Shown here one piece after another: positions 4,863 through 58,477 of a stretch of DNA of 64,000 bases. The notes beneath the pieces were generated by a model that made no database searches, was not told where the DNA came from, and was given only the letters and a program-made list of their open reading frames with translations. Made by a program: the position numbers and the translations under genes. The stretch lies in NCBI GenBank assembly GCA_016218485.1, contig JACRDY010000059.1:11529-75528 (forward strand), in the 5' to 3' direction. The DNA comes from Candidatus Falkowbacteria bacterium (GTDB lineage Bacteria; Patescibacteriota; Patescibacteriia; JACRDY01). Each line of letters starts with the position of its first letter. Position 1 is the stretch's first letter.

Positions 4863-4984
4863 AATTTTATTTCACCTATCACGTTTATTCTTTGTAATAC
4901 CCCGTCAGCTTGCTGCGGGGTTACCATATAATCCCGAGTCCAGAGCTTGCTCTGGGGTTCAATACCTTTTATTGAGTATTAATC

Positions 4985-6417: not shown

Positions 6418-6560
6418 AAGTTATAAAGTTGAAAGTTCAAAGTCCAAAATCCCAAGTTCAAAGTTCAAATCAAGTTCAAAGTTTTAAGTTCAAATGCCAA
6501 ATCAGCGCATTGTTTGAACTTTGTCATTAGGTATTGATTTGAACTTTGGATTTTGAACTT
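6418..6560. repeat. AT-rich palindromic repeat (gttcaaagt arrays; caaagttcaaaatccaaatgacaaatcaa / rc)
   Basis: Same element at 14325-14450 and 45398-45525. Confidence 0.75.
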
Positions 6561-7126
6561 TAGTTATTTTTTGCTTTAATAGTTTTCAGAATGTCCTCAA
6601 TCTGCTGGTGCAGCTGTTCAATCGTGCCGTTGTTGTTAATCGTGAAGTTGGCAGTCTGGCCGGTTTCCAGGATGTGGATTTCCGCTTCGGCTCGTTCATC
6701 CTGCTGGAATTGTTCAAAGGTTTTACTGGTATCATCAACGTTTTCTCCGCGTTTGATGATTCGTTCGTAGCGAATTGGTTGATCAGCGGTTAGGTAAATG
6801 AGGGAGAAGCCGGCGAACCGTCGCAGGTATTTGATGTCCGGTTCACGGCGGACGCCGTCAACGGCGATCAGTTCGGCCGAATCTTTATTGACGTCTTCGG
6901 CAATCACCCGCGCCAGCGTGTCTTGGCCAAAATTTTTACGCAATGTTTGCGACATGTGCTGCATATTATCGCGGACGATCGGCAGGTACAAGCGGCCGAG
7001 GATATCGCGCAGTATGCCGGAAAACCGGTATGACGGCGCGCCGTATTTCTCCTTGAGATACTGGCAGGCGGTGCCTTTGCCACTGGAGATTTCGCCGACA
7101 AAGCCGAGGATGATTTTATTGGCCAT
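6560..7126 (-). CDS. P-loop nucleotide kinase (dNMP-kinase-like)
   Basis: 188 aa; GFVGEISSGKGT P-loop at the N-terminus; embedded in the thymidylate cluster; family assignment tentative. Confidence 0.55.
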   Translation of the reverse strand: MANKIILGFVGEISSGKGTACQYLKEKYGAPSYRFSGILRDILGRLYLPIVRDNMQHMSQTLRKNFGQDTLARVIAEDVNKDSAELIAVDGVRREPDIKYLRRFAGFSLIYLTADQPIRYERIIKRGENVDDTSKTFEQFQQDERAEAEIHILETGQTANFTINNNGTIEQLHQQIEDILKTIKAKNN

Positions 7127-8346: not shown

Positions 8347-9141
8347 ATGGGTACGGCTAATATAAAAAATATTAAAGTAGCAGCGAAAGCCGGCGGGGAG
8401 GTACTCCGGCAGTATTTCGGTCAGGCTTTAAAAACTACCATTAAAACCGGTCCGGCGGATTTTGTGACCCAGGCGGATCTAGAGTCCGAGGCGGAAATTA
8501 TCAGAATTCTGGAAGCGGCGTTCCCGGACTACAATATTGACTCAGAAGAGCGCGGGCTGATTGATAAGGGTTCGGATTGGACATTTGTCATTGACCCGTT
8601 GGATGGTTCCAATAATTTTGTTTGTGGGATACCAAATTTTGCTGTTAGCATTGCTTTGTTAAAACAAAATACGTTGGAGGTTGGGGTTATTCAAGTGCCA
8701 TTATCCGGTCAGATTTATTGGGCGGCTCGGAATCAGGGTGCTTATGTCGGTGATTTGCCTAATCAGCCGCTCAGGGTGAGTGCGGCTCGGGAAATAAACT
8801 GTTCAACGATTGCCGTGGGTATGGGGTATGATGCTGTTCCTATGCGACAGACTATTTATAATCGGCTGGCCGCGATCCGTTTCCAGCGGGTATTGTCGGG
8901 CTGGTGTTCCACGCTGGAGCACGCGGTTTTGGCGGCGGGCAAGATTGAATTGGCGCTGCAGTACAAGGGCGAGCAGTATGATTTTTTGGCCGGGAAAATT
9001 ATTATGCGGGAAGCCGGTGCGATCATTACCGATTTGGCTGGCCAGCCGGAGAGCAGTGACTTGAACGGCAGTTTCATCGCCGGGAACAGCCGGGAGATGG
9101 TAGAGAAGTTTTTGGCGGGGATGGATTGGCAGGAATTATAG
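8347..9141 (+). CDS. inositol monophosphatase family protein (SuhB-like)
   Basis: 264 aa; DPLDGSNNF and WTFVIDPLDG IMPase motifs. Confidence 0.85.
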   Translation: MGTANIKNIKVAAKAGGEVLRQYFGQALKTTIKTGPADFVTQADLESEAEIIRILEAAFPDYNIDSEERGLIDKGSDWTFVIDPLDGSNNFVCGIPNFAVSIALLKQNTLEVGVIQVPLSGQIYWAARNQGAYVGDLPNQPLRVSAAREINCSTIAVGMGYDAVPMRQTIYNRLAAIRFQRVLSGWCSTLEHAVLAAGKIELALQYKGEQYDFLAGKIIMREAGAIITDLAGQPESSDLNGSFIAGNSREMVEKFLAGMDWQEL

Positions 9142-9163
9142 TTGAAAGTTATAAAGTTGAAAG

Positions 9164-9508
9164 TTATAAAGTTTTTATAAATCCAGAGATGAGTTTTGAT
9201 ATCTCAGTCGCCAGTTGAATGTACTGTGTGAATTGATCGTTGGGTATATATTTTAATTCTCGGCCAATATAGAGCATTGATCGTACTTCTCCACAGGATC
9301 CTTTGGCGATATAGAGGAAGGCGATGAATTCTTTATTCGTCCGGCGTTCAAACCCTTCAGCGATATTATTCATAATAGAGACTGAAGCTCTTTGAATTTG
9401 ATCACGGAATCCCCAGTCTTTATTATCTCTCATTGATGTGTATATGAGTAAGGATAATATTTGAGCTTTTTGCCAGGCAATAATATCTTCAAATCTTTTA
9501 ATAATCAT
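9164..9508 (-). CDS. four-helix-bundle protein (23S rRNA intervening-sequence protein family)
   Basis: 114 aa; AWQKA...ASVSIMNNIAEGFERRTNKEFIAFLYIAKGSCGEV matches family consensus; strongly AT-rich; flanked by agttataaagtt repeats. Confidence 0.8.
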   Translation of the reverse strand: MIIKRFEDIIAWQKAQILSLLIYTSMRDNKDWGFRDQIQRASVSIMNNIAEGFERRTNKEFIAFLYIAKGSCGEVRSMLYIGRELKYIPNDQFTQYIQLATEISKLISGFIKTL

Positions 9509-9671
9509 ATACTCACAGTATAAGAATAATTATTAAAAAATATCTAAACTCTTGATTTTTCCCTTTATAATTTGCAACTTTATAACTTTATAACTTTCAA
9601 CTTTATAACTTTTTTAACTAAAAAACCCCGTGGGCATATCCCACGAGCTTTTTTAAATTTTCAATCCGGAG

Positions 9672-10355
9672 TTAAACCGCCAGCTTGATACTCGGGCCCA
9701 TAGAGGTGCAGAGTACGGCATGTTTGAGGTAGGTGCCTTTAGACGATGAGGGTTTGGCTTTACGTACCGCTTCTAGGAAGGTTTCGGCATTATCCAGCAG
9801 TTTGTCTTGGCCAAAGGAGATTTTGCCGATCAGCTGATGGATGTTGCCGGTATTGTCGCTCTTGAAGGTGATTTTACCTTTTTTTAATTCTGAAATTATT
9901 TTAGCGACGTTCGGGCCGACAGTTTCGTTTTTCGGCGACGGCATCAGGCCGCGAGTGCCAAGGATTTTGGCGATGACGGCGATCTTCGGCATCATGGCCG
10001 GAGTGGCTACCGCCACTGCAAAATCAGTTTTCTCGGTTTTTTTGATTTCATTGATCAGGTCTTCGCCGCCGACCAGGTCAGCGCCGGCTTCCCGCGCGTC
10101 CTTTTCCTTATCAGCTTCCACAAAGGCAGCCACCCGTTTGCTCTTGCCCGTGCCGTGCGGCAGGGTAATGGTGGAGCGGATTTGCTGGTCGCTCTTTTTG
10201 GTATCAATGCCGAGCCGCAGGTGGATTTCCACGCCGGCGTCAAATTTTTCAGTCTTATGGCTGATAATCAGATTCAGCGCTTCGGCCAGGCTGTAGACTT
10301 GGCTGCGGTTAATTTTGGTAGCTAGTTCGTTGTAACGTTTGCCGTGTTTTGGCAT
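9672..10355 (-). CDS. rplA: 50S ribosomal protein L1
   Basis: 227 aa; L1 family throughout. Confidence 0.93.
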   Translation of the reverse strand: MPKHGKRYNELATKINRSQVYSLAEALNLIISHKTEKFDAGVEIHLRLGIDTKKSDQQIRSTITLPHGTGKSKRVAAFVEADKEKDAREAGADLVGGEDLINEIKKTEKTDFAVAVATPAMMPKIAVIAKILGTRGLMPSPKNETVGPNVAKIISELKKGKITFKSDNTGNIHQLIGKISFGQDKLLDNAETFLEAVRKAKPSSSKGTYLKHAVLCTSMGPSIKLAV

Positions 10356-10420
10356 AGGTATTTCGTTCAGTGGTGCGTGCGTCCGCCGCGGCGGACTCCC
10401 ACGGTTAGTTAGTTGTCAGT
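10356..10420 (-). promoter_or_regulatory. rplA 5' leader with conserved structured element (GUGGGAGUCCGCCGCGGCGGACGCACGCACCAC)
   Basis: ~45 nt identical to the rplK leader; contains the 16-bp palindrome gtccgccgcggcggac. Confidence 0.5.
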
Positions 10421-10490
10421 TAGAAAGTTGAAAGTTATAAAGTTAAAAGTACAAAACTTTCAACTTTATAACTTTATAATTTTAAACTTT
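10420..10490. repeat. agttataaagtt-family palindrome between rplK and rplA (terminator-like)
   Basis: Inverted repeat read directly. Confidence 0.6.
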
Positions 10491-10911
10491 ATTCCACCAT
10501 AATCCCCATCTGTCGGGCCGTGCCTTCAATAATGCGCATGGCGGCATTGATGTCATGAGCGTTGAGATCAACCATTTTTTTCTCGGCGATCTCTCTCACT
10601 TGAGCGCGGGTGACTTGGCCGACTTTTTCTTGCAGCGGTTTGCCTGAACCTTTGGCTACACCCGCGGCTTTTTTTAAGAGTTCAGCGGCCGGCGGAGTTT
10701 TGAGAATAAAGGTGTAGGTGCGATCCTCGTAGATGGTGATTTCACAGGGAGTAATGTCACCCGGCATTTGCTTGGTGGCTTCATTAAATTTACTGCAGAA
10801 TTCACTGATGTTCACGCCATGCTGGCCGAGCGCCGGGCCGACCGGCGGCGCCGGGTTGGCTTGCGCGCCCGGGATCTGCAGCTTGACGATTGTTTTGATT
10901 TTCTTAGCCAT
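10489..10911 (-). CDS. rplK: 50S ribosomal protein L11
   Basis: 140 aa; [35 protein letters not shown]. Confidence 0.95.
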
Positions 10912-10975
10912 ATACGTTTCGTTAAGTGGTGCGTGCGTCCGCCGCGGCGGACTCCCACGGTTGTTAGTTAAAAGT
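10912..10975 (-). promoter_or_regulatory. rplK 5' leader carrying the same structured element as the rplA leader
   Basis: gtgcgtgcgtccgccgcggcggactcccacgg on the + strand, identical to 10370-10410. Confidence 0.5.
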
Positions 10976-11041
10976 TAGAAAGTTGAAAGTTATAAAGTTG
11001 AAAGTTTTGTACTTTTAACTTTATAACTTTCAACTTGTAAC

Positions 11042-11587
11042 TCAGATTTTTTTTACTTGCAGGAAATCCAGCTCCACCGGTGTCTCGCGGCCGAACATAG
11101 AGACGAGCGCCTTGATCTTGCCGCGGGTTTCATCAATCTCGGAAATTTTTCCTTCAAAGTTTTTGAACGGGCCGTCCACGATGCGGATGGGCTGGCCGAT
11201 AGAGAGGTCAATGGTGTAGGTTGGCTCTTCCACGCCCTTGCGTTTCATGATAGCTTCCACTTCTTTTTTGGACATGGGCGTCGGCACCGTGCCGGAGCTG
11301 GTGAAGCCGGTGACGTTGGGGGTATTGCGCACCACGTACCAGGAATCATCAGTGACGGTCATTTCCACCATGATGTAGCCGGGGAAGATTTTTTCCTCAA
11401 TGACTTTCCGTTTACCATTTTTGATTTTGATCTTTCGCTCAGTCGGAATAACCACGTTAAAAATTTTGTCGTCCATACCCATGGAGACAATTCTGGACTT
11501 GAGGTCTTCCACCACTTTTTCCTCATAGCCGGAGTAGGTGTGAATGACGTACCAGCGGCGGCCGAGCTGTAGTGTTTGTTTTGGCAT
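11042..11587 (-). CDS. nusG: transcription termination/antitermination factor NusG
   Basis: 181 aa; NGN domain plus KOW (GQPIRIVDGPFKNFEGKISEID). Confidence 0.92.
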   Translation of the reverse strand: MPKQTLQLGRRWYVIHTYSGYEEKVVEDLKSRIVSMGMDDKIFNVVIPTERKIKIKNGKRKVIEEKIFPGYIMVEMTVTDDSWYVVRNTPNVTGFTSSGTVPTPMSKKEVEAIMKRKGVEEPTYTIDLSIGQPIRIVDGPFKNFEGKISEIDETRGKIKALVSMFGRETPVELDFLQVKKI

Positions 11588-11589
11588 AG

Positions 11590-11640
11590 TGGAGTAGTCC
11601 CTAGTCCTTAGTCCTTAGTCCTTAGTCCTTAGTCCTTAGC
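11590..11640. repeat. Tandem heptamer array (tccttag)x6-7; in the nusG mRNA it reads (CUAAGGA)n just 5' of the start codon
   Basis: Read directly; overlaps the secE stop codon; the same heptamer in opposite orientation lies before pilT at 13226-13262. Confidence 0.85.
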
Positions 11641-11642
11641 TC

Positions 11643-11831
11643 TTAGCGGTTGATGAGGTATTCAAAGCCAAAGGAAAAGATATAGTCTAGGAGACCCAAA
11701 AAGGCGGCCAACACCAGGCTGATGCCGATCACCAGCGCGGTGTGTTTGGTCGTTTCTTTTTTGGTCGGCCAAGTGACTTTTTTGAGTTCCACCTTGGATT
11801 CTTTGAAATATTCCACGATTTTGTTGGCCAT
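11643..11831 (-). CDS. secE: preprotein translocase subunit SecE
   Basis: 62 aa; single C-terminal TM; conserved secE-nusG-rplK-rplA context. Confidence 0.85.
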   Translation of the reverse strand: MANKIVEYFKESKVELKKVTWPTKKETTKHTALVIGISLVLAAFLGLLDYIFSFGFEYLINR

Positions 11832-11845
11832 AGTGTTTAAAATAA

Positions 11846-11947
11846 ATCCAGCACCTTCCAGAATACCCCATCAGCTTGCTGTGGGGGTGAATGGCTGAGA
11901 GAGTATGCCTGCAGTGTGTACTACCCCGACAGGAAGGTGCTGGATTT
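11846..11947. repeat. atccagcaccttccagaatacccc...ggaaggtgctggat palindromic repeat (long form with a gaatggctgagagagtat extension)
   Basis: Copies at 28771-28831, 31128-31245 and 51177-51237; partial at 4885-4935. Confidence 0.8.
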
Positions 11948-12131
11948 TAAAACCGCCCGGAGGCGGTATATTCAGTTTCTGTAGGTATTATAGGGGAAAA
12001 TACTGCGGCAGTCAAGGGGATAAGTTTTTGGGATAAGTTTTTGTACAGATAAGTTTTTGTGGTTGACATAAATAATATATTATGATAAAACAAGAAAGGT
12101 TTCCACCCCCATGACAATAAGGAGGCGGGTC

Positions 12132-12710
12132 ATGAAATTCACTCTTACGGAGCTGTTGTGTATCTTGCTGCTGATCGGTCTGGGAGCGTTCTATATGTGG
12201 GGGAACTTTGCCAAATTTGAGGATCAGGGGTTGGCTCAGGATAGCAAGGCGGCCAGCGCTGCGGCGACTACGGACACTCCAGTACAGGTCTGGCTGGCCT
12301 CGGATACGCCCCGGGACACGGTTACCTATGGCTGGCAGCGTCTGGCCATGTGGCAACTGCAGAATCACGCCCAGACCGATGTACGTCTGCAATCAGTGAC
12401 AGTACGGATCAAGAGCTCACACTCTGAGGATTTTGTCCGGATGGGGGTGGTATTCAACGGTGGTAATACCATTGACGATTGGGGGCCGTTCAGTTCGGAT
12501 ACAACAATCATGAACATGACACTCCCACCTGATGATGGGTACTTGACGCCAGAAGTATCTCGTCAACTGGAGCTGTTCGCGGAGATACAGCCAGTGGCGC
12601 TGTTTGATCCGGGTTGGTATGCCCAGGCGAGTCTCATCGGTCTGCAGACGGATCCGCCGGGTGCAGTCAGCGGACTGCCAGTGGATGGGTTCACCCTCCA
12701 CTTACAATAA
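12132..12710 (+). CDS. pilin-like protein (type IV pilin-like N-terminal helix; non-canonical prepilin site)
   Basis: aaggagg RBS then MKFTLTELLCILLLIGL (FTLxE with Glu5 but no Gly at -1); next to pilT; the ORF could also begin at 12111. Confidence 0.5.
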   Translation: MKFTLTELLCILLLIGLGAFYMWGNFAKFEDQGLAQDSKAASAAATTDTPVQVWLASDTPRDTVTYGWQRLAMWQLQNHAQTDVRLQSVTVRIKSSHSEDFVRMGVVFNGGNTIDDWGPFSSDTTIMNMTLPPDDGYLTPEVSRQLELFAEIQPVALFDPGWYAQASLIGLQTDPPGAVSGLPVDGFTLHLQ

Positions 12711-12789
12711 GCACATGATGAATCGGGAATCCCGCTCGGCGGGAGGCCCGATTTTCTTTTTTGCGTTGGAGTTGTTACCTCATTAATGA

Positions 12790-13200
12790 TAGAAGTAGGG
12801 AGGTTACTAATACGTTCCTCTCCTTACCAAGGAGAGGGCAGGTGAGGTTGCCGGAGCCTTCGGTCCCTACCCAAGGGGTGCTCGACGGTCTCCTCCTCTT
12901 ACAAGGTTCGCCGCAGGCAACCGAAGTAAGGGGAGGGACAGGGTGGGGTTAAGTTTACTGTATCGCAAAAAGTTTAAAGTATTTCGCATTGATTAGACTG
13001 CAAACCCCCTCCTGTCCTCCCCCTTATGAATAAGGGGGAGAGACGTGCTACCCCCGAACCCCACGTTACTTATTCTGTTTTCTTTTTGAATTTTATCTAG
13101 CTCTGACGGGGTAGGCAACATAGGAGGGTAATAGCCCGTCCTCCTCCTTACCAAGGAGAGGAACGCTCTAGCCTCGGCTCCACTGGACTTATTCTGTTTT
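12790..13200. repeat. GC-rich mosaic repeat cluster
   Basis: Contains ctctccttaccaaggagag twice, ggttgccggagccttcggtc, aaggggagggacagggtgggg, cctcctgtcctcccc and cttattctgttttc twice. Confidence 0.75.
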
Positions 13201-13225
13201 CTTTTCTTTCAAAATTTGGTAAAAT

Positions 13226-13262
13226 ACTAATAACTAAGGACTAAGGACTAAGGACTAAGGAC
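13226..13262. repeat. Tandem heptamer array (ctaagga)x5 immediately 5' of the pilT start; equals five tandem AAGGA Shine-Dalgarno cores
   Basis: Read directly; the last AAGGA lies 5 nt before the ATG. Confidence 0.85.
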
Positions 13263-13273
13263 TAAGGACTATT

Positions 13274-14323
13274 ATGGATATCAACCAATTTTTCTCGACC
13301 GCCATTACCAAGGGCGCTTCAGACGTTCACCTGGTGGCCGGGCACAAACCGACTGTCAGAATTTTTGGCAAGCTGCAGGAAATAGACGCTAGCGCGAGCG
13401 CGCTGGATAACGCGGAATTAACCAAGGGTATTTTTGGTCTCTTAACCAAAGAGCAGGTGGGGCGGTTTGAGCGCGAGTGGGAGCTGGACTTCGCCTACCA
13501 GGTGGATCACACCCGCTTCCGCGTCAACCTGCACTACCAGCTGGAGCAGATCGGCCTGGCCGCGCGTCTGGTGCCCAAAGATATCCCCACGCCGGCCGAG
13601 ATTAACCTGGAGCCGGTGCTCTACGAGCTGACGCACCTCAACCAGGGGTTCATCCTCGTCACCGGACCGACCGGCAGCGGTAAATCCACCACCATTGCCA
13701 GCATGCTCAATATTATCAATACCGAGCGGCGGTCGCACATCATTACCCTGGAAGATCCGATTGAGTTCATTTACCCCAAGCAGCAGAGTATCGTGGAGCA
13801 GCGCGAAGTCGGCCGCGACACCAAAACTTTCCACGCCGGGCTGAAGTATGTCCTGCGCCAGGATCCTAACGTCATCCTGATTGGCGAAATGCGCGACCCG
13901 GAGACCATCGCCGCCGCCCTGACCGCGGCCGAGACCGGGCACTTGGTTTTTTCCACCCTGCACACCAATTCGGCGGCCGAGACCGTGGAGCGGATCATTG
14001 ATTCGTTTGACTCCGAGCGGCAGCGCCAGATCCTGATCCAGCTTGGTTCGGCTTTGAAGGCGGTCGTGACGCAGCAGCTGGTGCCGACCGTGGAAGACAA
14101 GGTGACGGTGGCGCGGGAAATTATGATCAATACGCCCGCCATCGCCAACCTCATCAGGCAGAATAAGATCGCCCAGATTCCCTCGGTCATCCAGACCGGC
14201 CGTAATGATGGCATGATGACGATGAGCGCGGCGCTCAAAAATCTCTACAACAACGGACTGATTTCCGCCGATGTCTACCAGCACCGGCTGGTGAGCAGTG
14301 AGAAGGTGGGAAGTTACTTTTAG
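13274..14323 (+). CDS. pilT: type IV pilus retraction ATPase PilT
   Basis: 349 aa; GFILVTGPTGSGKSTT Walker A plus Asp box and His box of the PilT/PilU family. Confidence 0.9.
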   Translation: MDINQFFSTAITKGASDVHLVAGHKPTVRIFGKLQEIDASASALDNAELTKGIFGLLTKEQVGRFEREWELDFAYQVDHTRFRVNLHYQLEQIGLAARLVPKDIPTPAEINLEPVLYELTHLNQGFILVTGPTGSGKSTTIASMLNIINTERRSHIITLEDPIEFIYPKQQSIVEQREVGRDTKTFHAGLKYVLRQDPNVILIGEMRDPETIAAALTAAETGHLVFSTLHTNSAAETVERIIDSFDSERQRQILIQLGSALKAVVTQQLVPTVEDKVTVAREIMINTPAIANLIRQNKIAQIPSVIQTGRNDGMMTMSAALKNLYNNGLISADVYQHRLVSSEKVGSYF

Positions 14324-14324
14324 T

Positions 14325-14450
14325 TGAAAGTTCAAAGTTCAAAATCCAAATGACAAATCAATGCCAAATGACAAAGTTCAAAAGGTGCGACTATTAGGCA
14401 TTTAAACTTTGAACTTGATTTGAACTTTTGATTTTGAACTTTGAACTTAA
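14325..14450. repeat. AT-rich gttcaaagt palindromic repeat
   Basis: Near-identical to 6418-6560 and 45398-45525. Confidence 0.75.
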
Positions 14451-14453
14451 TCT

Positions 14454-14789
14454 ATGTCTCCAGAACGCTGGCAAACAATTAAAGGCCAAGTCAAGGATAA
14501 CCCGGCGCTGAAGGTGCTGGAAGAGGACGCGGGCGAGTTTGATGACATGCCCGGCAGTTTTGAGTCATTGGTGTTCATGGGGCCGATGGGTAAAATTAAG
14601 CTGGAGTTCATCACCCGGCCGGTCGTCTTGGACAAGAAAACCAATACCTCGCGCCGGATTGGCGCCGAGGCGAGCGTGGAGTATATTTATTCTGAAGATG
14701 AATTTAGCCACAAATTGACCGTCTACCAGTGGAATGAGGCCACGGATGATTGGGATGAGCTGAAAAGCAGTATGTTTGGGGGAGAATAA
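14454..14789 (+). CDS. hypothetical small acidic protein
   Basis: 111-aa ORF; no family recognised. Confidence 0.4.
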   Translation: MSPERWQTIKGQVKDNPALKVLEEDAGEFDDMPGSFESLVFMGPMGKIKLEFITRPVVLDKKTNTSRRIGAEASVEYIYSEDEFSHKLTVYQWNEATDDWDELKSSMFGGE

Positions 14790-16668: not shown

Positions 16669-16669
16669 A

Positions 16670-16810
16670 TTGTTACATTGCTACATTGCCAAATTGCCAA
16701 ATGGTCATTCTGTTATATTGCTATATGGTTATACTGTTAAATACCCCACCAAACAATATAACAGTATAGCAATGTGACAATTTAGCAATTTGGCAATGGA
16801 GCAATGTATT
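16670..16810. repeat. Palindromic repeat built from attgcca/attgcta heptamers
   Basis: ttgctacattgccaaattgccaaatgg...ccatttggcaat-like arms; related copy at 32650-32740. Confidence 0.65.
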
Positions 16811-18434: not shown

Positions 18435-18585
18435 TGAGCTGTTCGAGAGATGTTATAGGGTGACCTATAGCGGAGACCCGAACCTGTCCGCCGAAGTCCG
18501 CCGCGGCGGACGTAGGTGGATGGATTGAATATTTGGCTCGAAAGGGCAAACCAAGAAATCGCCGAAGGGCGGTTTTTTGATATAG
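18435..18585 (+). ncRNA. candidate small RNA or structured tRNA trailer ending in an intrinsic terminator (cgccgaagggcggtttttt)
   Basis: ~150 nt non-coding; contains a third copy of the gtccgccgcggcggac palindrome; terminator at ~18558-18580; not matched to any known RNA family. Confidence 0.2.
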
Positions 18586-28770: not shown

Positions 28771-28831
28771 ATCCAGCACCTTTCAGAATACCCCGTCAGT
28801 TTGCTGCGGGGTATTCTGAAAGGTGCTGGAT
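28771..28831. repeat. atccagcacctttcagaatacccc...ggaaggtgctggat palindromic repeat (short form)
   Basis: Perfect ~28-bp arms. Confidence 0.8.
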
Positions 28832-28875
28832 TTATTTCAAAAGTCGCCCGATCGGGCGATTTTTGGGTATTGTGG

Positions 28876-31125: not shown

Positions 31126-31127
31126 TA

Positions 31128-31245
31128 ATCCAGCACCTTCCAGAATATCCCGCAGCAAGCTGACGGGGTATTCTGGAAGGTGCTGGATGAATGGCTGAGA
31201 GAGTATTTCTGTGGCGTGCACTACCCCGACAGGAAGGTGCTGGAT
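31128..31245. repeat. atccagcaccttccagaata... palindromic repeat (long form)
   Basis: Near-identical to 11846-11947. Confidence 0.8.
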
Positions 31246-31256
31246 AAAATTTTGAT

Positions 31257-32280: not shown

Positions 32281-32384
32281 TTGTTTATAAGGTTTAACCA
32301 ATAGGCCGCTCCGGAAACGAGGGCGGTTTTTTAGATAAATTTTTTTATTAAAATTATCCATAGCGCTGATTAAGCTCAACCCCA

Positions 32385-32520
32385 CCCTGTCCCTCCCCTT
32401 ACTTCGGCCCCGCATTATGCGGGGACCTTGCAAGAGGAGGAGACGTGCTCTTCCGACTCAGGTGGTAGGTCCCGTCTCCTCCCCTTGCGGAGTAAGGGGA
32501 GGGACAGGGTGGGGTTGAGC
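32385..32520. repeat. ~135-bp GC-rich mosaic palindrome (ccccaccctgtccctccccttacttcgg-ccccgcattatgcgggg ... aaggggagggacagggtgggg)
   Basis: Outer and inner arms complementary, read directly. Confidence 0.8.
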
Positions 32521-35119: not shown

Positions 35120-35231
35120 AAAAACAAACCCGTTCGCAATAGCGGGAACGGATTTGTTTGACGGTTCCAGGTTTGACACTTGAATATTACCAGTATAACA
35201 AAGTATATTGTTGTGTCAATGGAATAGGTGT

Positions 35232-35300
35232 GGAGCTAAGGGGAATCGAACCCCTGTATTCAAGTGTCAGGCTGGAATACCGCCACCAGGCATAGCTCCA
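35232..35300 (-). tRNA. tRNA-like gene with canonical acceptor and T-arm but atypical D/anticodon region; anticodon unresolved (loop CCUGACA)
   Basis: Minus-strand RNA GGAGCUAUGCCUGGUGGCGGUAUUCCAGCCUGACACUUGAAUACAGGGGUUCGAUUCCCCUUAGCUCCA; 7/7 acceptor pairs; GGGGUUCGAUUCCCC T-arm; no CCA; anticodon stem needs a C-U mismatch or a 9-bp stem. Confidence 0.55.
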
Positions 35301-45383: not shown

Positions 45384-45397
45384 TGTATCGTATACTA

Positions 45398-45525
45398 AAA
45401 TTCAAAGTTCAAAATCCAAATGACAAATCAAGTTCAAAGCCTAAATGTCAAATCAACGCACCTTTTTGAACTTTGTCATTTGGCATTGATTTGAACTTTG
45501 GATTTTGAACTTTGAACTTATCGGG
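45398..45525. repeat. AT-rich gttcaaagt palindromic repeat
   Basis: Near-identical to 14325-14450. Confidence 0.75.
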
Positions 45526-49007: not shown

Positions 49008-50018
49008 ATGGTTCAAAAAGTCCGCGTCGCCATTAACGGTTTCGGTCGCATTGGCCGGGCGGCATTTAAAATTGCTTTAGACAACAAGAAAGTGGAGGTG
49101 GTGGCGATTAATGATCTGGTGGCGCCGTCGGTGCTGGCGTATCTTTTAAAATATGATTCAGTCTACAATACGTACGATAAGAAAGTGACCGCTGACAGTA
49201 AACACGTCATCGTCAATGGCAAGAAGTATCCGGTGTTTCAGGAGCGCGAGCCAAAGAGATTGCCCTGGAAAAAGTTGGGAGTGGATGTGGTTTTGGAGTG
49301 CACCGGATTTTTTCTGGACACGGCCGGGGCCGGACAGCACCTGCGGGCGGGCGCCAAAAAAGTGGTCATCTCCGCACCGGGCAAAGACGATGTGGCCAAC
49401 ACGCACGTCTTCGGCACTCTAGAGACGCAGAAGCATGTTAAGCACGGCCAAGTGGTTTCCAACGCTTCCTGCACCACCAATTGCATCAGCCCGGTGATGC
49501 AAGTCTTGGCCACCGTGTTTGGGATTGAGAAAGCGATGATGACGACCGCGCACGCCTATACCGCGAGCCAGGGGCTGGTTGATGAACCAAACAGCAAGGA
49601 TATGCGTGAAGGCCGCGCGGCGGCAATGAACCTAGTACCCACCCACACCGGCGCGGCGGAGGCGACCGCCAAAGTGGTCCCGGCGCTGCAGGGAAAATTC
49701 ACCGGTATTTCCATCCGCGTGCCCGTGATCTGCGGTTCGTTGTCTGACGTCACCTGTGTTTTGAAAAAAAATGTGACGGCAGAACAGGTCAATAATGCGT
49801 TTCGCCGCGCTGCCAAGCAGCCGCTGTTCAAAAATATTCTGGAAGTTTCCGACGCACCATTAGTTTCCAGTGACATCATTGGCAATCCGCATTCGGCGAT
49901 CGTGGACACGACCTTTACCCGCGTGGTTGACGGTAACTTAGTGAAGGTTTTGGCCTGGTATGATAACGAGTGGGGGTACGCGCACCGGTTGGTGGAGATG
50001 GCGGTGGCAGTAAGTTAG
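49008..50018 (+). CDS. gap: glyceraldehyde-3-phosphate dehydrogenase
   Basis: 336 aa; NGFGRIGR and ASCTTNC active-site motifs. Confidence 0.95.
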   Translation: MVQKVRVAINGFGRIGRAAFKIALDNKKVEVVAINDLVAPSVLAYLLKYDSVYNTYDKKVTADSKHVIVNGKKYPVFQEREPKRLPWKKLGVDVVLECTGFFLDTAGAGQHLRAGAKKVVISAPGKDDVANTHVFGTLETQKHVKHGQVVSNASCTTNCISPVMQVLATVFGIEKAMMTTAHAYTASQGLVDEPNSKDMREGRAAAMNLVPTHTGAAEATAKVVPALQGKFTGISIRVPVICGSLSDVTCVLKKNVTAEQVNNAFRRAAKQPLFKNILEVSDAPLVSSDIIGNPHSAIVDTTFTRVVDGNLVKVLAWYDNEWGYAHRLVEMAVAVS

Positions 50019-50019
50019 T

Positions 50020-50125
50020 AATCAGTAATCAGTAATCAGTAATCAGTAATCAGTAATCAGTAATCAGTAATCAGTAATCAGTAATCAGTAACTAGTTACT
50101 AGTTACTGATTACCAGTTACTTTAT
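50020..50125. repeat. Tandem heptamer array (agtaatc)x10 followed by inverted (agttact)x3
   Basis: Read directly. Confidence 0.9.
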
Positions 50126-51176: not shown

Positions 51177-51237
51177 ATCCAGCACCTTCCAGCATATCCC
51201 GTCAGCGTGCTGCGGGGTATGCTGGAAGGTGCTGGAT
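51177..51237. repeat. atccagcaccttccagcata... palindromic repeat (short form)
   Basis: Family copy. Confidence 0.8.
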
Positions 51238-51339
51238 AAAAATTAGAAATTGGAGAAAAACCCTTTGAAATAAAAGGTTTTTTATTTGCCAAAATAGGGG
51301 ATTCTGGTATAGTTGATGAGGGAGAAATTCAGTATTTCC

Positions 51340-51440
51340 TGCGTTTTAGTTATTGGAAAGAGATTTAGTATATCGTATGTCGTATATGGTATGTGGGGAA
51401 ATTCCCCCATATACCATATACCACATACTATATTCCCCCC
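51340..51440. repeat. gtatatg-heptamer-based palindrome directly upstream of paralog 1
   Basis: tcgtatgtcgtatatggtatgtgggg / ccccatataccatataccacatac. Confidence 0.6.
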
Positions 51441-51441
51441 T

Positions 51442-53091
51442 ATGCTCAACTGCAAGAATTGTAATCAACCTTTCACCATCTACCCCGAAGACCAGGAAAT
51501 GTACGATAAGTTTGCCGTACCCGCGCCGCGGCGTTGTCCGCGTTGCCGGCTGATTCAGCGGCTGATGTTCCGGAACGCTCGGGCCCTGTATTACCGGAAG
51601 TGCGACCGCAGCGGCGAGACCATTTTGTCCAGCTATAATCCGAGTCAGCCGTTCCCGGTGTACAAGCCGGATATTTGGTGGAGTGACCAATGGGAAGCCA
51701 TGGATTACGCCCGGGATTATGATTTTGGCAAACCATTTTTTGCCCAATTCAAAGAGCTGAATGACGTGGTACCGCACTTCAGCCTCTTCGTCAGTAATGG
51801 CACGGTGGTGAATTGCGACTTTACCAACTGTATTGGTTTTTCCAAGAATTGTTATTTGACGTTTGAGACTGACTACGCGGAGGACAGCTATTACTCCAAC
51901 CTCTTGAAACGGAGCAAGGACATGGTGGACTGTTCTATTTGCTATGATGATGAATTTTGCTACCAGTGCGTTGATTGCCAGGCGTCGTACGGCTTGCGCT
52001 ATTGTCAAAATTGCACCGGTTGCCGGGACAGCTATTTCCTGTTTGATTGTAAATCGTGTAATGACTGCATCGGCTGTATCAACCAGCGCTATCAGAAATT
52101 CATGATTTTTAACGAGCAGTACAGTGAAGCAGAATATAACCAGAAAAAAGCCGCGCTGCGGCTGGATACCCGCTCGGGCGTCGCGGCGCTCGCTTCGCAG
52201 TGCCAGCAGTTTTTCGGGAAGCACCCGCACAAAAATTTGCAGTTTGAAAAGAACGTCAATAGTGTCGGTAACTATTTGTATAACTCCAAAAACGCATTCC
52301 AGTGCTTCGACTGCAGCGACCTGGAAGACTGCCGCTACTGCGCTAAGCTGTCAATCGGCGTCAAGTCGTGCATGGATTACAACTCGTGGGGCGACCGGGC
52401 GGAGCTCGTCTACAGCTGTTCGGATGTCGGCGGCGGCGTGTATAACCTGAAATTTTGCTGGGCGATTGATACCAAGACCTCAGACTGTGAATACTGCACG
52501 CAGTGTATTGCCTGCAAGGACTGCTTTGGCTGCAGCGGACTGCAAAAGAAGCAGTACTGCATTTTGAATAAACAGTATTCGGAAAAAGAGTATTTCGCGT
52601 TGAAAGAAAAAATTATTGCCAAAATGACAGCCGATGGAGAGTATGGTGAATTTTTTCCGGCAGAGCTGTGTCCGTTTGCCTATAATGAAACCATCGTGAT
52701 GGATTATTTCCCCCTAACCAAAGATGAAGCGTTGAAAGCCGGCTATCGCTGGTATGACCGGGAAAAGTCCAAGCAGCCTGCTGAAACTGAGGCGCCGGAT
52801 GCGATTGGCGAGGTGGCGGACGCCATCATTGGTAAGGTATTAGCCTGCCGTGATTGCCAGTCAAATTATAAGATTATTAAACAAGAATTAGATTTTTGCC
52901 GTCGGGCGAGCGCGCCGATTCCTAGCCAGTGTCCGGACTGCCGACATTTTGGCCGAATGAACAAGCGGATGCCGCTGAGTTTGATCACGGTCAAATGCGA
53001 TAAATGCGGCAATGACATGACGACCGGATATACTGCCGGGGCGGTGCAGAAGGTGTATTGCGAGGAATGTTATCAGAAGGAAATTTACTAG
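51442..53091 (+). CDS. Cys-rich multi-zinc-ribbon repeat protein, paralog 1 of 6 (unassigned family)
   Basis: N-terminal CxxC...CPRCR ribbon; two internal Cys-rich blocks each ending in YC(I/M)(L/F)N(K/E)QYSE.EY; GEYGEFFP...PFAYNET; C-terminal ribbons ending YCEECYQKEIY. Confidence 0.8.
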   Translation: MLNCKNCNQPFTIYPEDQEMYDKFAVPAPRRCPRCRLIQRLMFRNARALYYRKCDRSGETILSSYNPSQPFPVYKPDIWWSDQWEAMDYARDYDFGKPFFAQFKELNDVVPHFSLFVSNGTVVNCDFTNCIGFSKNCYLTFETDYAEDSYYSNLLKRSKDMVDCSICYDDEFCYQCVDCQASYGLRYCQNCTGCRDSYFLFDCKSCNDCIGCINQRYQKFMIFNEQYSEAEYNQKKAALRLDTRSGVAALASQCQQFFGKHPHKNLQFEKNVNSVGNYLYNSKNAFQCFDCSDLEDCRYCAKLSIGVKSCMDYNSWGDRAELVYSCSDVGGGVYNLKFCWAIDTKTSDCEYCTQCIACKDCFGCSGLQKKQYCILNKQYSEKEYFALKEKIIAKMTADGEYGEFFPAELCPFAYNETIVMDYFPLTKDEALKAGYRWYDREKSKQPAETEAPDAIGEVADAIIGKVLACRDCQSNYKIIKQELDFCRRASAPIPSQCPDCRHFGRMNKRMPLSLITVKCDKCGNDMTTGYTAGAVQKVYCEECYQKEIY

Positions 53092-53154
53092 CGCACAGCA
53101 CAGAGCTTATAGCACAAAGCTATGCGCTCTGAGCTCTGTGCTTTGAGCTACTTT
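53092..53154. repeat. Inter-paralog palindromic spacer (gcacagcacaaagc...gctctgagctctgtgctttgagc); same at 54841-54903 and 58418-58477
   Basis: Three near-identical copies read directly. Confidence 0.8.
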
Positions 53155-54840
53155 ATGCCAACCTGTAAACAATGCAATCAACCTTTCATCCTTGGCCAGA
53201 TCGGCACAGATATTTTGCGGCGGCTGGATGTACCTGAACCGTCAGTGTGTGATGTTTGCGCCGTGCGCCAGCTGATGGCCTTTCGGAACGAGCGGACTTT
53301 TTATTCCAGCCAGTGTCAGAAGTGTTCGAAAACCATTCTATCGATGTATCCGCCAGACACCGCGCTGAGCGTCTACTGTCGCGACTGCTGGTGGGGAGAT
53401 ACTTGGGACGGCACGCAGTTTGGCCGAGTGTATCGTGGGCCGGAAACATTTTTCCAAGAGCTAGCTGAACTGCAGAAAGTCGTGCCTCGGGAAGGATTGG
53501 TTAACCTGAACAGTCCGGATTGCGATTACTGCAACCACGTCCGTGATTGCAAGTCCTGCTATATGTGTTCGCTCTTGTCTGATCAGTGTGAAGAATGTTA
53601 CTACTGCTACTGGATTGTCACGGTGAAGGATTCAGCGGCCTGTTACTATGGGCGCAATAACCAGCGCTGTTACTTCTGTGTCGCCACGATCCAGAGCTAT
53701 GGCTGCTCGTATGTATTGGAATGTGAAAATTGTTTAGACTGCCACTATAGCTTTGATCTGCGAGGCTGTAAGAATTGCATGTTCAGCAGCAACTTACGCA
53801 ATCAGCAGTATGTTTTTGAGAATCAACAGTTGACCAAGACTGAATACGAAACGCGGGCCGCGGCAGTCAATCGGGGGAGCTGGCAGCAGTCACGAGACTC
53901 TGTGCAACGCTGGCATCAGCTGATTGACCAGGCGGTGAAGGCGTACTCATACCAGAGTAAATGTGAAAATTCTACCGGGGATAATATCCAGAGCAGCGTG
54001 AACACCCAGCTCGCCTATAATAGTTTTGAAGATGAAAACGCCTATAACGCCGCGAGCGTGATTTGTGCTAAGAATATTTTTAACGGTTTTGCCGTGGGCA
54101 GCCAGCCGACCGAATGGGCGAGTAATATCGCCGTCGTGAAGGGCGGCACGCAGATCGTCAGCTGTTTCAACACCGCGTACTCCAGCGATATTTATTTTTG
54201 TGAGAATCTAATTTCCTGCATGGACTGCATCGGCTGTATTGGCCTGCACAAAAAGAAGTACTGCATTCTGAATACACAGTATGAGGAAGAGGAGTATAAA
54301 AAAATCAAAGCCGAGCTACTCGGGTATTTGCGTCAGAGCGGCGCGCTGTCGGAATTTTTCCCAAAGTCATTTTCGCCATTTGCCTACAATGAAACCGCGG
54401 CGCAGGATTTTTATCCTTTGACGAAAGAACAAGCCGTTCAGCTGGACTATACTTGGAAGGATGAATTACCCGGGACTTTTGGCCATGAGACGCTGCCAGC
54501 CGATGGCGTGCCCGATCGGATTGCCGAGGTGAATGATGACATCTTACGGCAGACTCTAGCCTGTATTCACTGCGGCCGGAATTTCAAATTAATTAAACAA
54601 GAGCTGACACTTTATCGGTCGCTCGGCGTGCCGATCCCGCGCGAATGTTTTAATTGTACGTTGCGTCAGCGGCTGGACTTGATGGGGGAGCGTGATTTAC
54701 GGGAGCGGCAGTGTGATTGTACGCGAGCAGAACATCAGCAGCATCAGGGTAAAACATGCCAAAATAAGTTTTTGACGAAATATACCGCGAAAGATAAGAA
54801 GGTGTACTGCGAGGAGTGTTATCAGAAGGAAATTTACTAA
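53155..54840 (+). CDS. Cys-rich multi-zinc-ribbon repeat protein, paralog 2
   Basis: Same architecture; true start MPTCKQCNQPF (the ORF-track start lies in the inter-paralog palindrome). Confidence 0.8.
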   Translation: MPTCKQCNQPFILGQIGTDILRRLDVPEPSVCDVCAVRQLMAFRNERTFYSSQCQKCSKTILSMYPPDTALSVYCRDCWWGDTWDGTQFGRVYRGPETFFQELAELQKVVPREGLVNLNSPDCDYCNHVRDCKSCYMCSLLSDQCEECYYCYWIVTVKDSAACYYGRNNQRCYFCVATIQSYGCSYVLECENCLDCHYSFDLRGCKNCMFSSNLRNQQYVFENQQLTKTEYETRAAAVNRGSWQQSRDSVQRWHQLIDQAVKAYSYQSKCENSTGDNIQSSVNTQLAYNSFEDENAYNAASVICAKNIFNGFAVGSQPTEWASNIAVVKGGTQIVSCFNTAYSSDIYFCENLISCMDCIGCIGLHKKKYCILNTQYEEEEYKKIKAELLGYLRQSGALSEFFPKSFSPFAYNETAAQDFYPLTKEQAVQLDYTWKDELPGTFGHETLPADGVPDRIAEVNDDILRQTLACIHCGRNFKLIKQELTLYRSLGVPIPRECFNCTLRQRLDLMGERDLRERQCDCTRAEHQQHQGKTCQNKFLTKYTAKDKKVYCEECYQKEIY

Positions 54841-54903
54841 CACACAGCACAAAGCGCAGAGCACAAAGCTATGCGCTCTGAGCTCTGTGCTTTGAGCTAC
54901 TGT

Positions 54904-56565
54904 ATGCCAACCTGTAAAAACTGCACCACCGACTTCACCATCACCGACGCAGACAAAACGTTCTACGCCAAGATTGACGTACCCGAGCCGACGCGCTGCC
55001 CGCAGTGCCGGAAACAGCGGCGTTTGAGCTTCCGCAATGAGTCAAATTTTTATTTAACCAAATGTCAGCGGTGTCATAAAGAAACGGTTTCGGTGTATTC
55101 ACCGAATAAACCTTTGGTGGTGTATTGTAAAGACTGCTGGTGGGGTGAGGACTGGAATCCGTTGGATTACGGCCAAGAGTTTGATTGGCAGAAAAGTTTT
55201 ACCGAGCAGTTTAGAGATCTGATGGCGGTGGTGCCGCGGCCGGCGCTCTTGCATTCCGAGAGCGTGAACTGCGATTATAGCATGTTTTCGGCCAATAATA
55301 AGGACTGCTACATGCTGGTACAGTCCAGTAACTGCGAAGAATGCCACTACTGCTACTGGGTGCAGAAATGCCGTAATTGTTTGGATTCGGCGTTTTGTTT
55401 GGACTGCGAGCTGTGCTATCAAGTTGTCGGCGGGGAAAAGTGTTATAACTGTTTTTATTGTAACAATTGTTCCGGTTGCTTGGACAGTCGGTTTCTGCTT
55501 AATTGTCGTGGCTGCAAAAATTGCTTTGGCTGCGTTAATCTCAATAACGCGCAATATTGCATTTTTAATGAACAGAAAACGAAAACCGAGTATGAAACAT
55601 TTATTCAATCAGTAGATTTTATTTCATACCGACACTACCGAGAGTACCAGGAAAAGTTTTATCAGTTTTCTTTACAGCACCCGCGTCGTTTCGCTGAAAT
55701 TTATCAGGCGGATAATTCTACGGGTAATTATCTCAAACGGGTTAAAAACGTCACCATGATTTTTGACGGTTATGATATTGAAGACTGTAGCTACGGTCAG
55801 CACGTCTTGCGTGAGGTGAAAGATGTGATGGATGTCAGTAATGCCGCTCGTAAAGCAGAATTAGTCTATGAAAGTGTTCAGGCGGTATTGAACGTGTATC
55901 AGATTCGTTTTAGTTTATTCCCGCGTCAAGGCGCTTCATTTTTGGATTACTGCGATCATTGCGTCGGGGCTAAGAATTGTTTCGGCTGCATCGCGGTGCG
56001 GAATCAAAAGTATTGCATTTTGAATAAACAGTATAGTGAAAAAGAATATACCGTTGTGGTGCCGAAAATTATTAATCACCTCAAACAAACAGGGAAGTGG
56101 GGAGAATTTTTTGATCCGAGTCTGTCGGCGTTTGGCTATAACGAAACGAACGCCATGGAATTTTTCCCGTTGACGAAAAAAGCGGCAATGACTCAAGGGT
56201 TTAACTGGGAGGATAACACCGGCGGTACTTTCGGCCAGGAAACAATCAAGTGGGCAAACATGCCGGATCGTTTCAGCGACTATGCGGGCGACTTGAGCCG
56301 AGAAGTGTTGACGTGCTCTGACTGCCGGCGGAATTATAAGTTGGTGGCCGTAGAACTGGATTTTTATAAAAAATATAGCTTACCCATTCCGCGGCAGTGC
56401 CCGAAGTGTCGCCACCGCGAGCGCATCACCAGCCGGAATCCGGAACAGCTGTATCACCGTGCCTGTATGAACGCAGGGTGTAAGAATGAATTTGAAACCA
56501 CGTATTCACCCGCCCGACCGGAAAAAGTTTATTGTGAAGCGTGTTACCAGAAAGAGATTTATTAG
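54904..56565 (+). CDS. Cys-rich multi-zinc-ribbon repeat protein, paralog 3
   Basis: Same architecture; 5' ~100 nt near-identical to paralogs 5 and 6. Confidence 0.8.
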   Translation: MPTCKNCTTDFTITDADKTFYAKIDVPEPTRCPQCRKQRRLSFRNESNFYLTKCQRCHKETVSVYSPNKPLVVYCKDCWWGEDWNPLDYGQEFDWQKSFTEQFRDLMAVVPRPALLHSESVNCDYSMFSANNKDCYMLVQSSNCEECHYCYWVQKCRNCLDSAFCLDCELCYQVVGGEKCYNCFYCNNCSGCLDSRFLLNCRGCKNCFGCVNLNNAQYCIFNEQKTKTEYETFIQSVDFISYRHYREYQEKFYQFSLQHPRRFAEIYQADNSTGNYLKRVKNVTMIFDGYDIEDCSYGQHVLREVKDVMDVSNAARKAELVYESVQAVLNVYQIRFSLFPRQGASFLDYCDHCVGAKNCFGCIAVRNQKYCILNKQYSEKEYTVVVPKIINHLKQTGKWGEFFDPSLSAFGYNETNAMEFFPLTKKAAMTQGFNWEDNTGGTFGQETIKWANMPDRFSDYAGDLSREVLTCSDCRRNYKLVAVELDFYKKYSLPIPRQCPKCRHRERITSRNPEQLYHRACMNAGCKNEFETTYSPARPEKVYCEACYQKEIY

Positions 56566-56650
56566 GAACGACACGCCCTCTGGGCGTGTTATGTTTGTTA
56601 CGCGCTCTGTAACCATAACACAGCCAGAGGCTGTGTCGTTCCCTTGGAGG
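56566..56650. repeat. Inter-paralog gacacgccctctgggcgtgttatg...cataacacagccagaggctgtgtc palindrome
   Basis: Same family as 48850-48950 and 60112-60190. Confidence 0.8.
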
Positions 56651-56695
56651 AACAATTTTTGACAAAATTTAAAATCCTGGCTATACTAAAGCATT

Positions 56696-58417: not shown

Positions 58418-58477
58418 TGCACAGCACAAAGCGCACAGCACAAAGCTATGCGCTCTGAGCTCTGTGCTTTGAGCTAT

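Follow-up and report, generated by a model that had tools for sequence, protein, structure and literature searches.

Intergenic direct repeats of the heptamer TAACTGA occur in marine Beggiatoaceae and in some Cyanobacteria and Bacteroidetes, where their function is unknown and a role in translation has been proposed (MacGregor 2015, PMC4679880). They are the closest described analogue of the element examined here, a tandem array of the heptamer CTAAGGA that stands directly upstream of both nusG and pilT in a 64,000-nucleotide stretch of DNA from a Candidatus Falkowbacteria bacterium, a tiny groundwater organism (contig JACRDY010000059.1, positions 11,529 to 75,528 of the forward strand; this whole stretch is referred to as the window). 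In both systems forward tandem heptamers lie a few nucleotides upstream of start codons in leaders poor in Shine-Dalgarno (SD) sequences, the TAACTGA repeats being present in 2-6 or more mostly forward copies over the expected ribosome-binding site (RBS), ribosomal-protein operons included (PMC4679880). They differ in that a single unit, with no complementarity to 16S rRNA, dominates the TAACTGA genomes, whereas the window, which is of patescibacterial origin, has no single dominant genome-wide unit but ~20 units per 64 kb, many of them in hairpins, and its CTAAGGA unit contains an SD core. We consider it somewhat favored, at a probability of roughly 0.55, that the two CTAAGGA arrays are young microsatellite leaders, expanded by slippage and belonging to a lineage-wide class, in which the last unit can serve as an SD sequence and the multiplicity of units is a by-product.

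The STRR heptamers of cyanobacteria form a comparable repeat class. More generally, heptanucleotide units are the commonest class of prokaryotic long simple sequence repeats (SSRs), according to the summary of Mrazek et al. (2007) given in PMC4679880. As summarized there, these repeats are perfect tandem heptamers, intergenic, sporadic across phyla and attributed to polymerase slippage, as are the arrays considered here; the density of 7 arrays per 10 kb, the paired inverted layout and the exact stop-to-start placement in the window go beyond that summary. The (ATCTTTC)n repeats of hmw1A and hmw2A in Haemophilus influenzae resemble CTAAGGA in being heptamer repeats within a 5' untranslated region (UTR), and there the length changes by slippage and sets expression (PMC12721329). 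The hmw repeats, however, make up the left arm of a long, RNase III-cleaved hairpin and comprise at least 11 units in nature, whereas the CTAAGGA leaders have 5-7 units and are unstructured, with no such long 5'-UTR hairpin; the hairpin-type arrays found elsewhere in the window are closer to hmw than the CTAAGGA leaders are.

Two further systems bear on the comparison. In Coxiella burnetii's 23S rRNA intervening sequence (IVS), the inverted repeats at the ends pair into a stem that RNase III cuts, and enclose an S23p/IVP open reading frame (ORF), before which stand tandem GACAGAT heptamers in strain-variable number (PMC4990558). Whereas an IVS of the Coxiella type lies in rRNA, the elements of the window lie in mRNA spacers, and the CTAAGGA pair encloses ancestral genes with its two arms on different transcripts. 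With canonical SD sequences and standby sites (Sterk et al. 2018, PMC5934652) the CTAAGGA leaders share an AAGGA at 5 nt or an AGGGA at 10 nt from the start codon together with a single-stranded upstream tract. Natural SD sequences are single, though, and standby tails need no SD cores, whereas the CTAAGGA leaders have multiple cores, for which both the 16S pairing and a standby effect are predictions.

Results

An earlier, sequence-only reading of the window had described the same heptamer, in mRNA sense, before nusG and pilT, had placed the beginning of the nusG copy inside the secE stop codon, and had taken the arrays for multiple phased RBSs. The placement is confirmed. Inspection of the sequence, Tandem Repeats Finder (TRF) and a repeat probe agree that the arrays end 10 nt (nusG) and 5 nt (pilT) from the ATG, which is at 11587-11585 on the minus strand for nusG and at 13274 on the plus strand for pilT, and Pfam matches bear out the identities of secE, nusG and pilT (Table 1). 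The final sense codon of secE, CGC, runs on the minus strand into CTAAGAG, and the TAA of this first unit, at 11645-11643, is the secE stop. The count of 5-7 repeats per array is right only if imperfect copies are included, each array having five perfect units and the remaining 1-2 being degenerate. TRF reports 11595-11639 on the nusG side (period 7, 6.4 copies, 97% matches) and 13233-13271 on the pilT side (period 7, 5.6 copies, 100% matches). A two-unit CTAAGGA probe, allowed up to 2 mismatches, finds 11 matches in the window, all of them at these two arrays, against a mean of 0.15 in dinucleotide-preserving shuffles, none of which (0/100) reaches 11. The tandem arrays are thus real and statistically secure, and both have the perfect head-to-tail copies and the length beyond chance that define a heptanucleotide SSR.

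Table 1. Positions of the CTAAGGA arrays, of the genes and promoter elements associated with them, and of the IVP loci for which coordinates were taken (window numbering unless a related locus is named)
Feature	Position	Strand	Basis or remark
nusG-proximal heptamer array: CTAAGAG, 5 x CTAAGGA, CTAGGGA	11598..11646	-	sequence, TRF, probe; occupies the secE-nusG intercistronic spacer
secE stop codon TAA, inside the first (degenerate) array unit	11643..11645	-	sequence read
10-nt spacer CTACTCCACT from the last unit (AGGGA) to the nusG ATG, T at -1	11588..11597	-	sequence read
pilT-proximal heptamer array: CTAATAA, 5 x CTAAGGA	13227..13268	+	sequence, TRF, probe
5-nt spacer CTATT before the pilT ATG, T at -1	13269..13273	+	sequence read
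nusG, 181 aa	11042..11587	-	NusG PF02357 plus KOW, E 2e-29
secE, 62 aa, upstream of nusG and co-oriented	11643..11831	-	SecE PF00584, E 1e-21
pilT, 349 aa, PilT-type T2SSE-family ATPase	13274..14323	+	PF00437, E 2e-47
Promoter-like site TTGACT-17-TATAAT upstream of secE, 11/12 matches	11987..12015	-	promoter pattern match
pilT extended -10 element TGGTAAAAT	13217..13225	+	conservation in relatives; position read from sequence
IVP gene of the window	9164-9508	-	
Arrays flanking the IVP gene of the window	9140-9173 and 9563-9612		
IVP locus in L206	2502-2932		
IVP locus in L051	~6546-7046		

At the DNA level the nusG and pilT arrays are exact inverted copies with 1587 nt between them, and taken as an inverted pair their arms are 45 nt long and 93% complementary. 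The likeness ends with the arrays: local alignment beyond their edges scores 16 against a shuffled mean of 14.3, a value reached by 122/500 shuffles. A 96-nt extension that appeared 74% complementary, and that would have pointed to an inverted duplication of the flanks, lost its significance once the arrays were removed and was rejected. Rfam gave no match on either CTAAGGA array, at the gathering threshold or at E<=1 over 10300-14600, where the only hits were sub-threshold look-alikes of miRNA hairpins on hairpin arrays.

Both arrays would lie in leader RNA, that of nusG as the whole secE-nusG intercistronic spacer and that of pilT as practically the whole 5' UTR. The strong promoter-like site upstream of secE is the likely promoter of a secE-nusG-rplK-rplA transcript, which would place the nusG array within a polycistronic mRNA. 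For pilT, the extended -10 element, kept as TG-G/T-TAWAAT/TATAGT in the relatives L001, L202, L204, L206 and L208, puts the predicted start of transcription near 13232, 1-2 nt ahead of the first perfect unit, so that the predicted pilT 5' UTR is essentially (CUAAGGA)5CUAUU. A weak promoter-like match on the minus strand at 13298..13271 could in principle yield an antisense (UCCUUAG)n RNA; promoter-like matches across the region are at chance level (5 seen against 3.8 expected). Neither CTAAGGA leader folds better than its shuffles (z-scores of 0.05 and -0.71), in contrast to the hairpin arrays elsewhere, for which the corresponding values are -5 to -12. The 35-49 nt predicted to be unstructured exceed the length of at least 16-18 nt given for standby sites (PMC5934652).

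The two arrays are members of a much larger population. The 64-kb window holds 47 arrays of period 7 or 8, compared with 0-6 (mean ~2.4) in 20 first-order Markov simulations; ~35 of the 47 fall within the non-coding 13% of the window, and one is present in 22 of the 48 spacers that measure at least 25 nt. This corresponds to 7 arrays per 10 kb, and the density in relatives is variable, up to ~10 per 10 kb. About 20 different units are found, among them AGTTGAA/AGTTATAA, AAGTTCA, AATTACG, CAGTAAT (12 copies), AGATACC, AGATTGC, ATTGCCA and GCACAAA, the CTAAGGA unit occurring at only two sites. The arrays take one of two forms, either a hairpin of array, loop and inverted array or a single array running up to a start codon, and their neighbors are housekeeping genes of the ordinary kind (rplK, rplA, rpsB-tsf, gap, eno, bipA and a Mur ligase gene). 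Examples are at 10418-10492, 10966-11042, 14322-14448, 16669-16808, 45397-45519, 50008-50121 and 63803-63890. Many of the hairpin arrays start at or beside the upstream stop codon, at places where more distant relatives have ordinary GC-rich stem-loops. In the literature searched, with subscription journals not covered, no prior description of such arrays in Patescibacteria or the candidate phyla radiation was found.

One hairpin array could be compared with that of a close strain. Downstream of nusG, the window (10965-11044, minus strand) and L201 (693-775), which comes from a Hainich sample and whose NusG is 97% identical, both have hairpins with stems of 28-31 base pairs, and the periodic G-C pair of every window unit is a C-G pair in every L201 unit. 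Base pairs were counted outward from the loop for this purpose, the alignment obtained with MAFFT/RNAalifold being misaligned by the repeats. More distant relatives have an ordinary GC-rich hairpin in the same place. The compared sequences indicate selection on the structure of the hairpin arrays, whose sequence meanwhile changes in a concerted manner, by compensatory evolution.

Initiation in this genome makes little use of SD sequences. SD-like leaders, defined by a duplex of -6 kcal/mol or below with the canonical anti-SD, precede 8 of 56 window genes, the corresponding share of random 22-mers being 11.8%; SD use does not exceed the background, and SD pairing is not a general initiation signal here. 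The leaders are rich in A and poor in G between positions -12 and -4, and T is at -1 in 38 of the 44 ATG starts of the window, those of nusG and pilT included, often as ACT-ATG or CT-ATG, which suggests a U(-1)AUG signal with SD-independent initiation. Inspected by eye, the nusG orthologues of 80 related loci share this T at -1 almost without exception. Textbook SD sequences are nevertheless present at a few genes, AAGGAGG or AGGAGG preceding ORFs 12132, 23591 and 29009, and AGGAGG stands before nusG in the relatives L030, L047 and L048, from which the anti-SD is probably intact. The spacing of the last array unit falls in the usual SD range (~4-10 nt), with AAGGA-CTATT-ATG at 5 nt for pilT and AGGGA-CTACTCCACT-ATG at 10 nt for nusG. 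The window and the 209 loci searched contain no 16S rRNA, and the duplex energies of UAAGGA, -4.9 to -5.8 kcal/mol, refer to an assumed canonical 16S tail (ACCUCCUUU) and not to the organism's own. Since UAAGGA is complementary to this canonical tail, the start-proximal unit could work as an SD sequence in both leaders.

An SD core is the exception among arrays in this position. Counting arrays of period 7 or 8 that end within ~25 nt of a start codon, we found 27 in the window and 80 related loci, and only the two CTAAGGA arrays contain such a core. In the window the others include (AATTACG)3 before tsf, (CAGTAAT)12 followed by AGTTACT units before an AI-2E transporter gene, and an array before the gene downstream of pilT.

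NusG and PilT of the window are 100% identical to proteins of a Candidatus Falkowbacteria metagenome-assembled genome, and the relatives are all Patescibacteria. Comparison with these relatives shows that the arrays are conserved at neither site. The divergent arrangement pbp<pilT / secE>nusG>rplK is ancestral in the sub-clade and is shared by relatives that have no arrays, so the arrays arose within pre-existing spacers. In L201 the secE-nusG spacer reads TAAGGA CTACGTA CTAGGAA CTAAGGA CTATCATGT ATG, a shorter and degenerate array with two intact units in 33 nt as opposed to the 55 nt of the window. At 85% NusG identity, L204 and L205 have a heptamer array before nusG that is not SD-like (CCAACAG CTATCGG CTGACAG CTAACAG); L206 has a 14-mer repeat in the spacer, and L001, L202, L207 and L208 have no array there. 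Most of the relatives compared have no SD before nusG or pilT. Their pilT leaders are AU-rich and SD-free, and in L001, the closest assembled relative, the pilT ATG lies only 9 nt past the -10 element, so that the mRNA would be nearly leaderless. A PilT search for a close strain gave a best match of 78% identity, and the comparison of unit number between close strains is thus limited to one strain (L201) and to the nusG site. In the spacer after pilT in L001 (3728-3801, minus sense) there are (CCATATC)4 and (TAATACC)6, ending TTACTCT-ATG of the next gene; its position equals that of the window array at 14322-14448, and the units are unrelated.

Outside this lineage, an exact (CTAAGGA)3 probe matched more than 120 metagenome contigs with GC contents of 30% to 74%, a range that marks the unit as widespread and not lineage-specific. 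Most of these arrays are not start-proximal, and for 25 of 101 an inverted partner lies no more than 120 nt away, as in a hairpin. Among the relatives, L043 likewise carries an AAGGA-type array as a 3' hairpin between convergent genes.

A second association concerns the genes of the 23S_rRNA_IVP family (PF05635). All 11 of the IVP genes examined lie between inverted heptamer or octamer arrays, with genome-specific units and in GC-diverse organisms; the cases are the window, L206, L051, L050, L002 and L076 together with the metagenome loci L190, L111, L131, L185 and L151, and in these five metagenome loci the flanking arrays are of the CTAAGGA type. In the window, the unit family on either side of the IVP gene, AGTTGAA/AGTTATAA, is also the commonest hairpin-array family. 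Seen from the arrays, an IVP gene lies within 30-75 nt in 5 of 120 (CTAAGGA)3 metagenome loci. By analogy with the Coxiella IVS, the hairpin arrays may be stems of an IVS-like kind, a description that leaves the two single-stranded CTAAGGA leaders unexplained. An IVS-like element would have inverted arms on one transcript around an IVP gene or a short loop, whereas the CTAAGGA pair, on divergent transcripts and with 1587 nt between its arms, encloses secE and a pilin-like gene and no IVP gene.

Several other features of the region were recorded. Between secE and pilT lies ORF 12132-12710 (plus strand), which has a type IV prepilin-like N-terminus (MKFTLTELL...), a strong AAGGAGG SD and no Pfam match; the longer start at 12111 given by the ORF finder is probably wrong. 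The 563-nt spacer between this pilin-like gene and pilT is occupied at 12780-13170 by GC-rich palindromic repeats (CCTCTCCTTACCAAGGAGAGG; CCCTCCCCTTA...TAAGGGGAGGG) that recur 20 kb away at 32380-32520, and a similar palindrome, CCCCTTATAAAGGGG, precedes nusG in L037. A dispersed long palindromic element (ATCCAGCACCTTCCAGAATACCCC...GGGGTATTCTGGAAGGTGCTGGAT), similar to repetitive extragenic palindromes (REP) or miniature inverted-repeat transposable elements (MITE), occurs at 11844-11947, ~28771-28832, ~31127-31246 and 51177-51236, with a related copy near 4890-4960; the copy at 11844-11947 falls within the leader of secE, with the promoter-like site on one side and the gene on the other. A terminator-like hairpin, CCGCCTCCGGGCGG followed by TTTTAAAA (11955-11980, minus strand), comes directly after the predicted promoter of secE and could act as an attenuator in the leader or terminate transcription in both directions. 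A near-identical ~50-nt leader stands directly upstream of rplA (10356-10410) and rplK (10912-10965) in minus-strand sense, with a hairpin GTCCGCCGCGGCGGAC between GTGGGAG...CACCAC; a GC hairpin is also present at ~18490-18515, and L201 has a sequence related to this leader before rplK. Autoregulation by L1/L11 is a possible role for this leader, which has no Rfam match. Farther away, six tandem paralogous ORFs of ~550-590 aa fill 51313-61841, with no Pfam match for the two that were scanned. Three of the junctions among them are 30-nt heptamer-based spacers (GCACAGC ACAAAGC ...), and at the junctions the ATG lies within a 14-nt repeat, AGCTATGCGCTCTG, that runs on into coding sequence. Rfam gives a borderline tRNA match at 35231-35299 (minus strand), with 29.8 bits against a gathering threshold of 29, for which ARAGORN made no call.

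Discussion

In the explanation that we favor, the CTAAGGA arrays would be young, lineage-specific heptanucleotide microsatellites within a genome-wide population of 7-8-nt arrays that fills spacers and that relatives have to varying degrees. The perfection of the repeats speaks for their youth. Unlike the hairpin arrays of the same genome, these two would be present in their mRNAs as single-stranded, purine-rich, unstructured leaders, whose last copy could pair with the 16S tail (AAGGA-N5-AUG for pilT, AGGGA-N10-AUG for nusG), the upstream copies being mainly the product of slippage and concerted expansion with at most a mild landing, or standby, benefit. The tandem-SD idea is attractive, yet it is probably not why the arrays exist.

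Several observations weigh against this explanation. The G-rich CTAAGGA units are atypical among the G-poor leaders of the genome, and both arrays are oriented in the sense direction, have SD-compatible spacing and contain exactly five perfect units each, a shared orientation, spacing and unit number that could come from selection or gene conversion and not from neutral slippage. In the metagenome sample, each array was extended, the first start codon beyond it was taken, and an ATG-initiated ORF of at least 100 aa within 20 nt was counted as start-proximal; by this measure 20 of 107 sense arrays were start-proximal, compared with 4 of 110 antisense arrays (six-fold, Fisher p = 4e-4), and many of the start-proximal arrays have GGA 4-10 nt before the ATG. 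This sequence pattern suggests that the SD content of CTAAGGA arrays is used when available. Finally, transcription, start sites and copy-number polymorphism are all deduced from sequence, and anti-SD pairing was scored on the canonical 16S tail. Most of the metagenome arrays lie away from start codons; it seems from these sequences that the SD-like unit is exploited where an array happens to fall before a start codon, and that arrays in general are something else.

The strongest alternative, although we regard it as unlikely, is that of a designed enhancer or standby platform, in which phased SD cores hold 30S subunits, or post-termination ribosomes arriving from secE, and feed them to the AUG, giving strong or coupled initiation of nusG and pilT in an SD-poor organism. 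It agrees with the sense orientation of the arrays, with their absence of structure and with a last unit set at the right distance from the ATG, and also with the metagenome sense bias and the finding that standby enhances initiation where an unstructured 5' tail measures at least 16-18 nt (Sterk et al. 2018, PMC5934652); a nusG array that starts within the secE stop codon would suit re-initiation. A designed stack of RBSs is nonetheless the less likely reading. Start-proximal arrays without SD cores are common in the genome and the clade and occupy equal positions, SD use is at background level, the close relatives have two intact units, a non-SD array or none, and SD cores are unnecessary for standby. 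What the sequence-only reading had proposed as a phased multi-RBS enhancer or standby site is thus supported in part, by the geometry of the arrays; a dedicated design is not supported, given the 47 arrays of many units in the window and the AAGGA-type arrays that form hairpins, at a 3' end in L043 and also in the metagenome sample.

More doubtful is a contingency mechanism in which SSR unit number would set nusG and pilT expression in a graded, heritable and reversible manner, as in the hmw1A 5' UTR of H. influenzae. The number and sequence of units do differ between the window and L201, the repeats are perfect, hence young, and pilus retraction by PilT is a plausible phase-variable function; moreover, the length of the transcribed (ATCTTTC)n repeat of hmw1A is inversely related to expression (PMC12721329), and in the Coxiella IVS strains differ in how many heptamers stand upstream of S23p (PMC4990558). 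Against this, an essential housekeeping gene such as nusG is a strange choice of target, arrays precede housekeeping genes of all kinds, the strain comparison covers one close strain at one of the two sites, and the hmw mechanism requires an RNase III-cleaved hairpin, whereas the CTAAGGA arrays do not fold. For the slippage-prone element envisaged in the sequence-only reading, the differences in unit number and perfection from L201, one strain at the nusG site, fit slippage.

Equally tentative is a broader proposal that takes its lead from the IVP genes. Heptamer arrays might be the footprint of a fast, concertedly evolving, IVP-linked system related to rRNA IVSs that has spread into mRNA spacers of Patescibacteria and other phyla, and two single arms of it would have been taken over as leaders that carry SD cores, are tunable by copy number and together set nusG and pilT translation in an organism otherwise initiating without SD.

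We think it very improbable that the arrays are a binding platform for a GGA-recognizing RNA-binding regulator (CsrA/RsmA-like, S1 or Csp-like) that would occlude the RBS and co-regulate the two divergent operons. Repeated A(N)GGA motifs in a leader, one of them over the SD position, do resemble CsrA target leaders. The same unit precedes two genes, and binding of S1, Csp or CsrA was proposed for the TAACTGA repeats (MacGregor 2015); but ~20 units would need ~20 binders, unstructured GGA motifs 7 nt apart are atypical compared with presentation in hairpin loops, and tblastn found no CsrA homologue in the window and ~0.96 Mb of related Patescibacteria loci, which as partial genomes make this a weak negative. 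Nothing found supports the protein-binding site offered in the sequence-only reading. Just as remote is a DNA-level or long-range element, in which the inverted arrays would be a split IVS-like stem or a recombination substrate inverting the 1.6-kb segment with secE and the pilin-like gene, the leader role being secondary: the long, nearly complementary arms and the other inverted array pairs that flank inserted genes, IVP genes among them, recall such an element, but the secE-nusG adjacency and divergent pilT/secE order of array-free relatives exclude a cassette insertion, there is neither homology past the arrays nor a recombinase or IVS-protein gene between the arms, and arms on divergent transcripts cannot pair in cis.

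The microsatellite explanation, with an SD-like last unit, is thus the one that we carry forward, and the more novel leads, compared with the tandem SD, are the array phenomenon seen across the genome and its connection with IVP genes. If the SD reading were true, these leaders would present, within a bacterium poor in SD sequences, a natural series of 1-7 phased SD cores in which SD multiplicity and standby binding could be tested. The better-supported result is that patescibacterial spacers are saturated with fast-evolving 7-8-nt arrays that are tied to 23S rRNA IVS-protein genes and that appear either as hairpins replacing ordinary stem-loops or as single-stranded leaders abutting start codons. 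Gene calling and RBS models for these genomes are affected by such arrays, which are also sensitive strain markers, and they point to a route, so far undescribed, for generating and maintaining RNA structure between genes.

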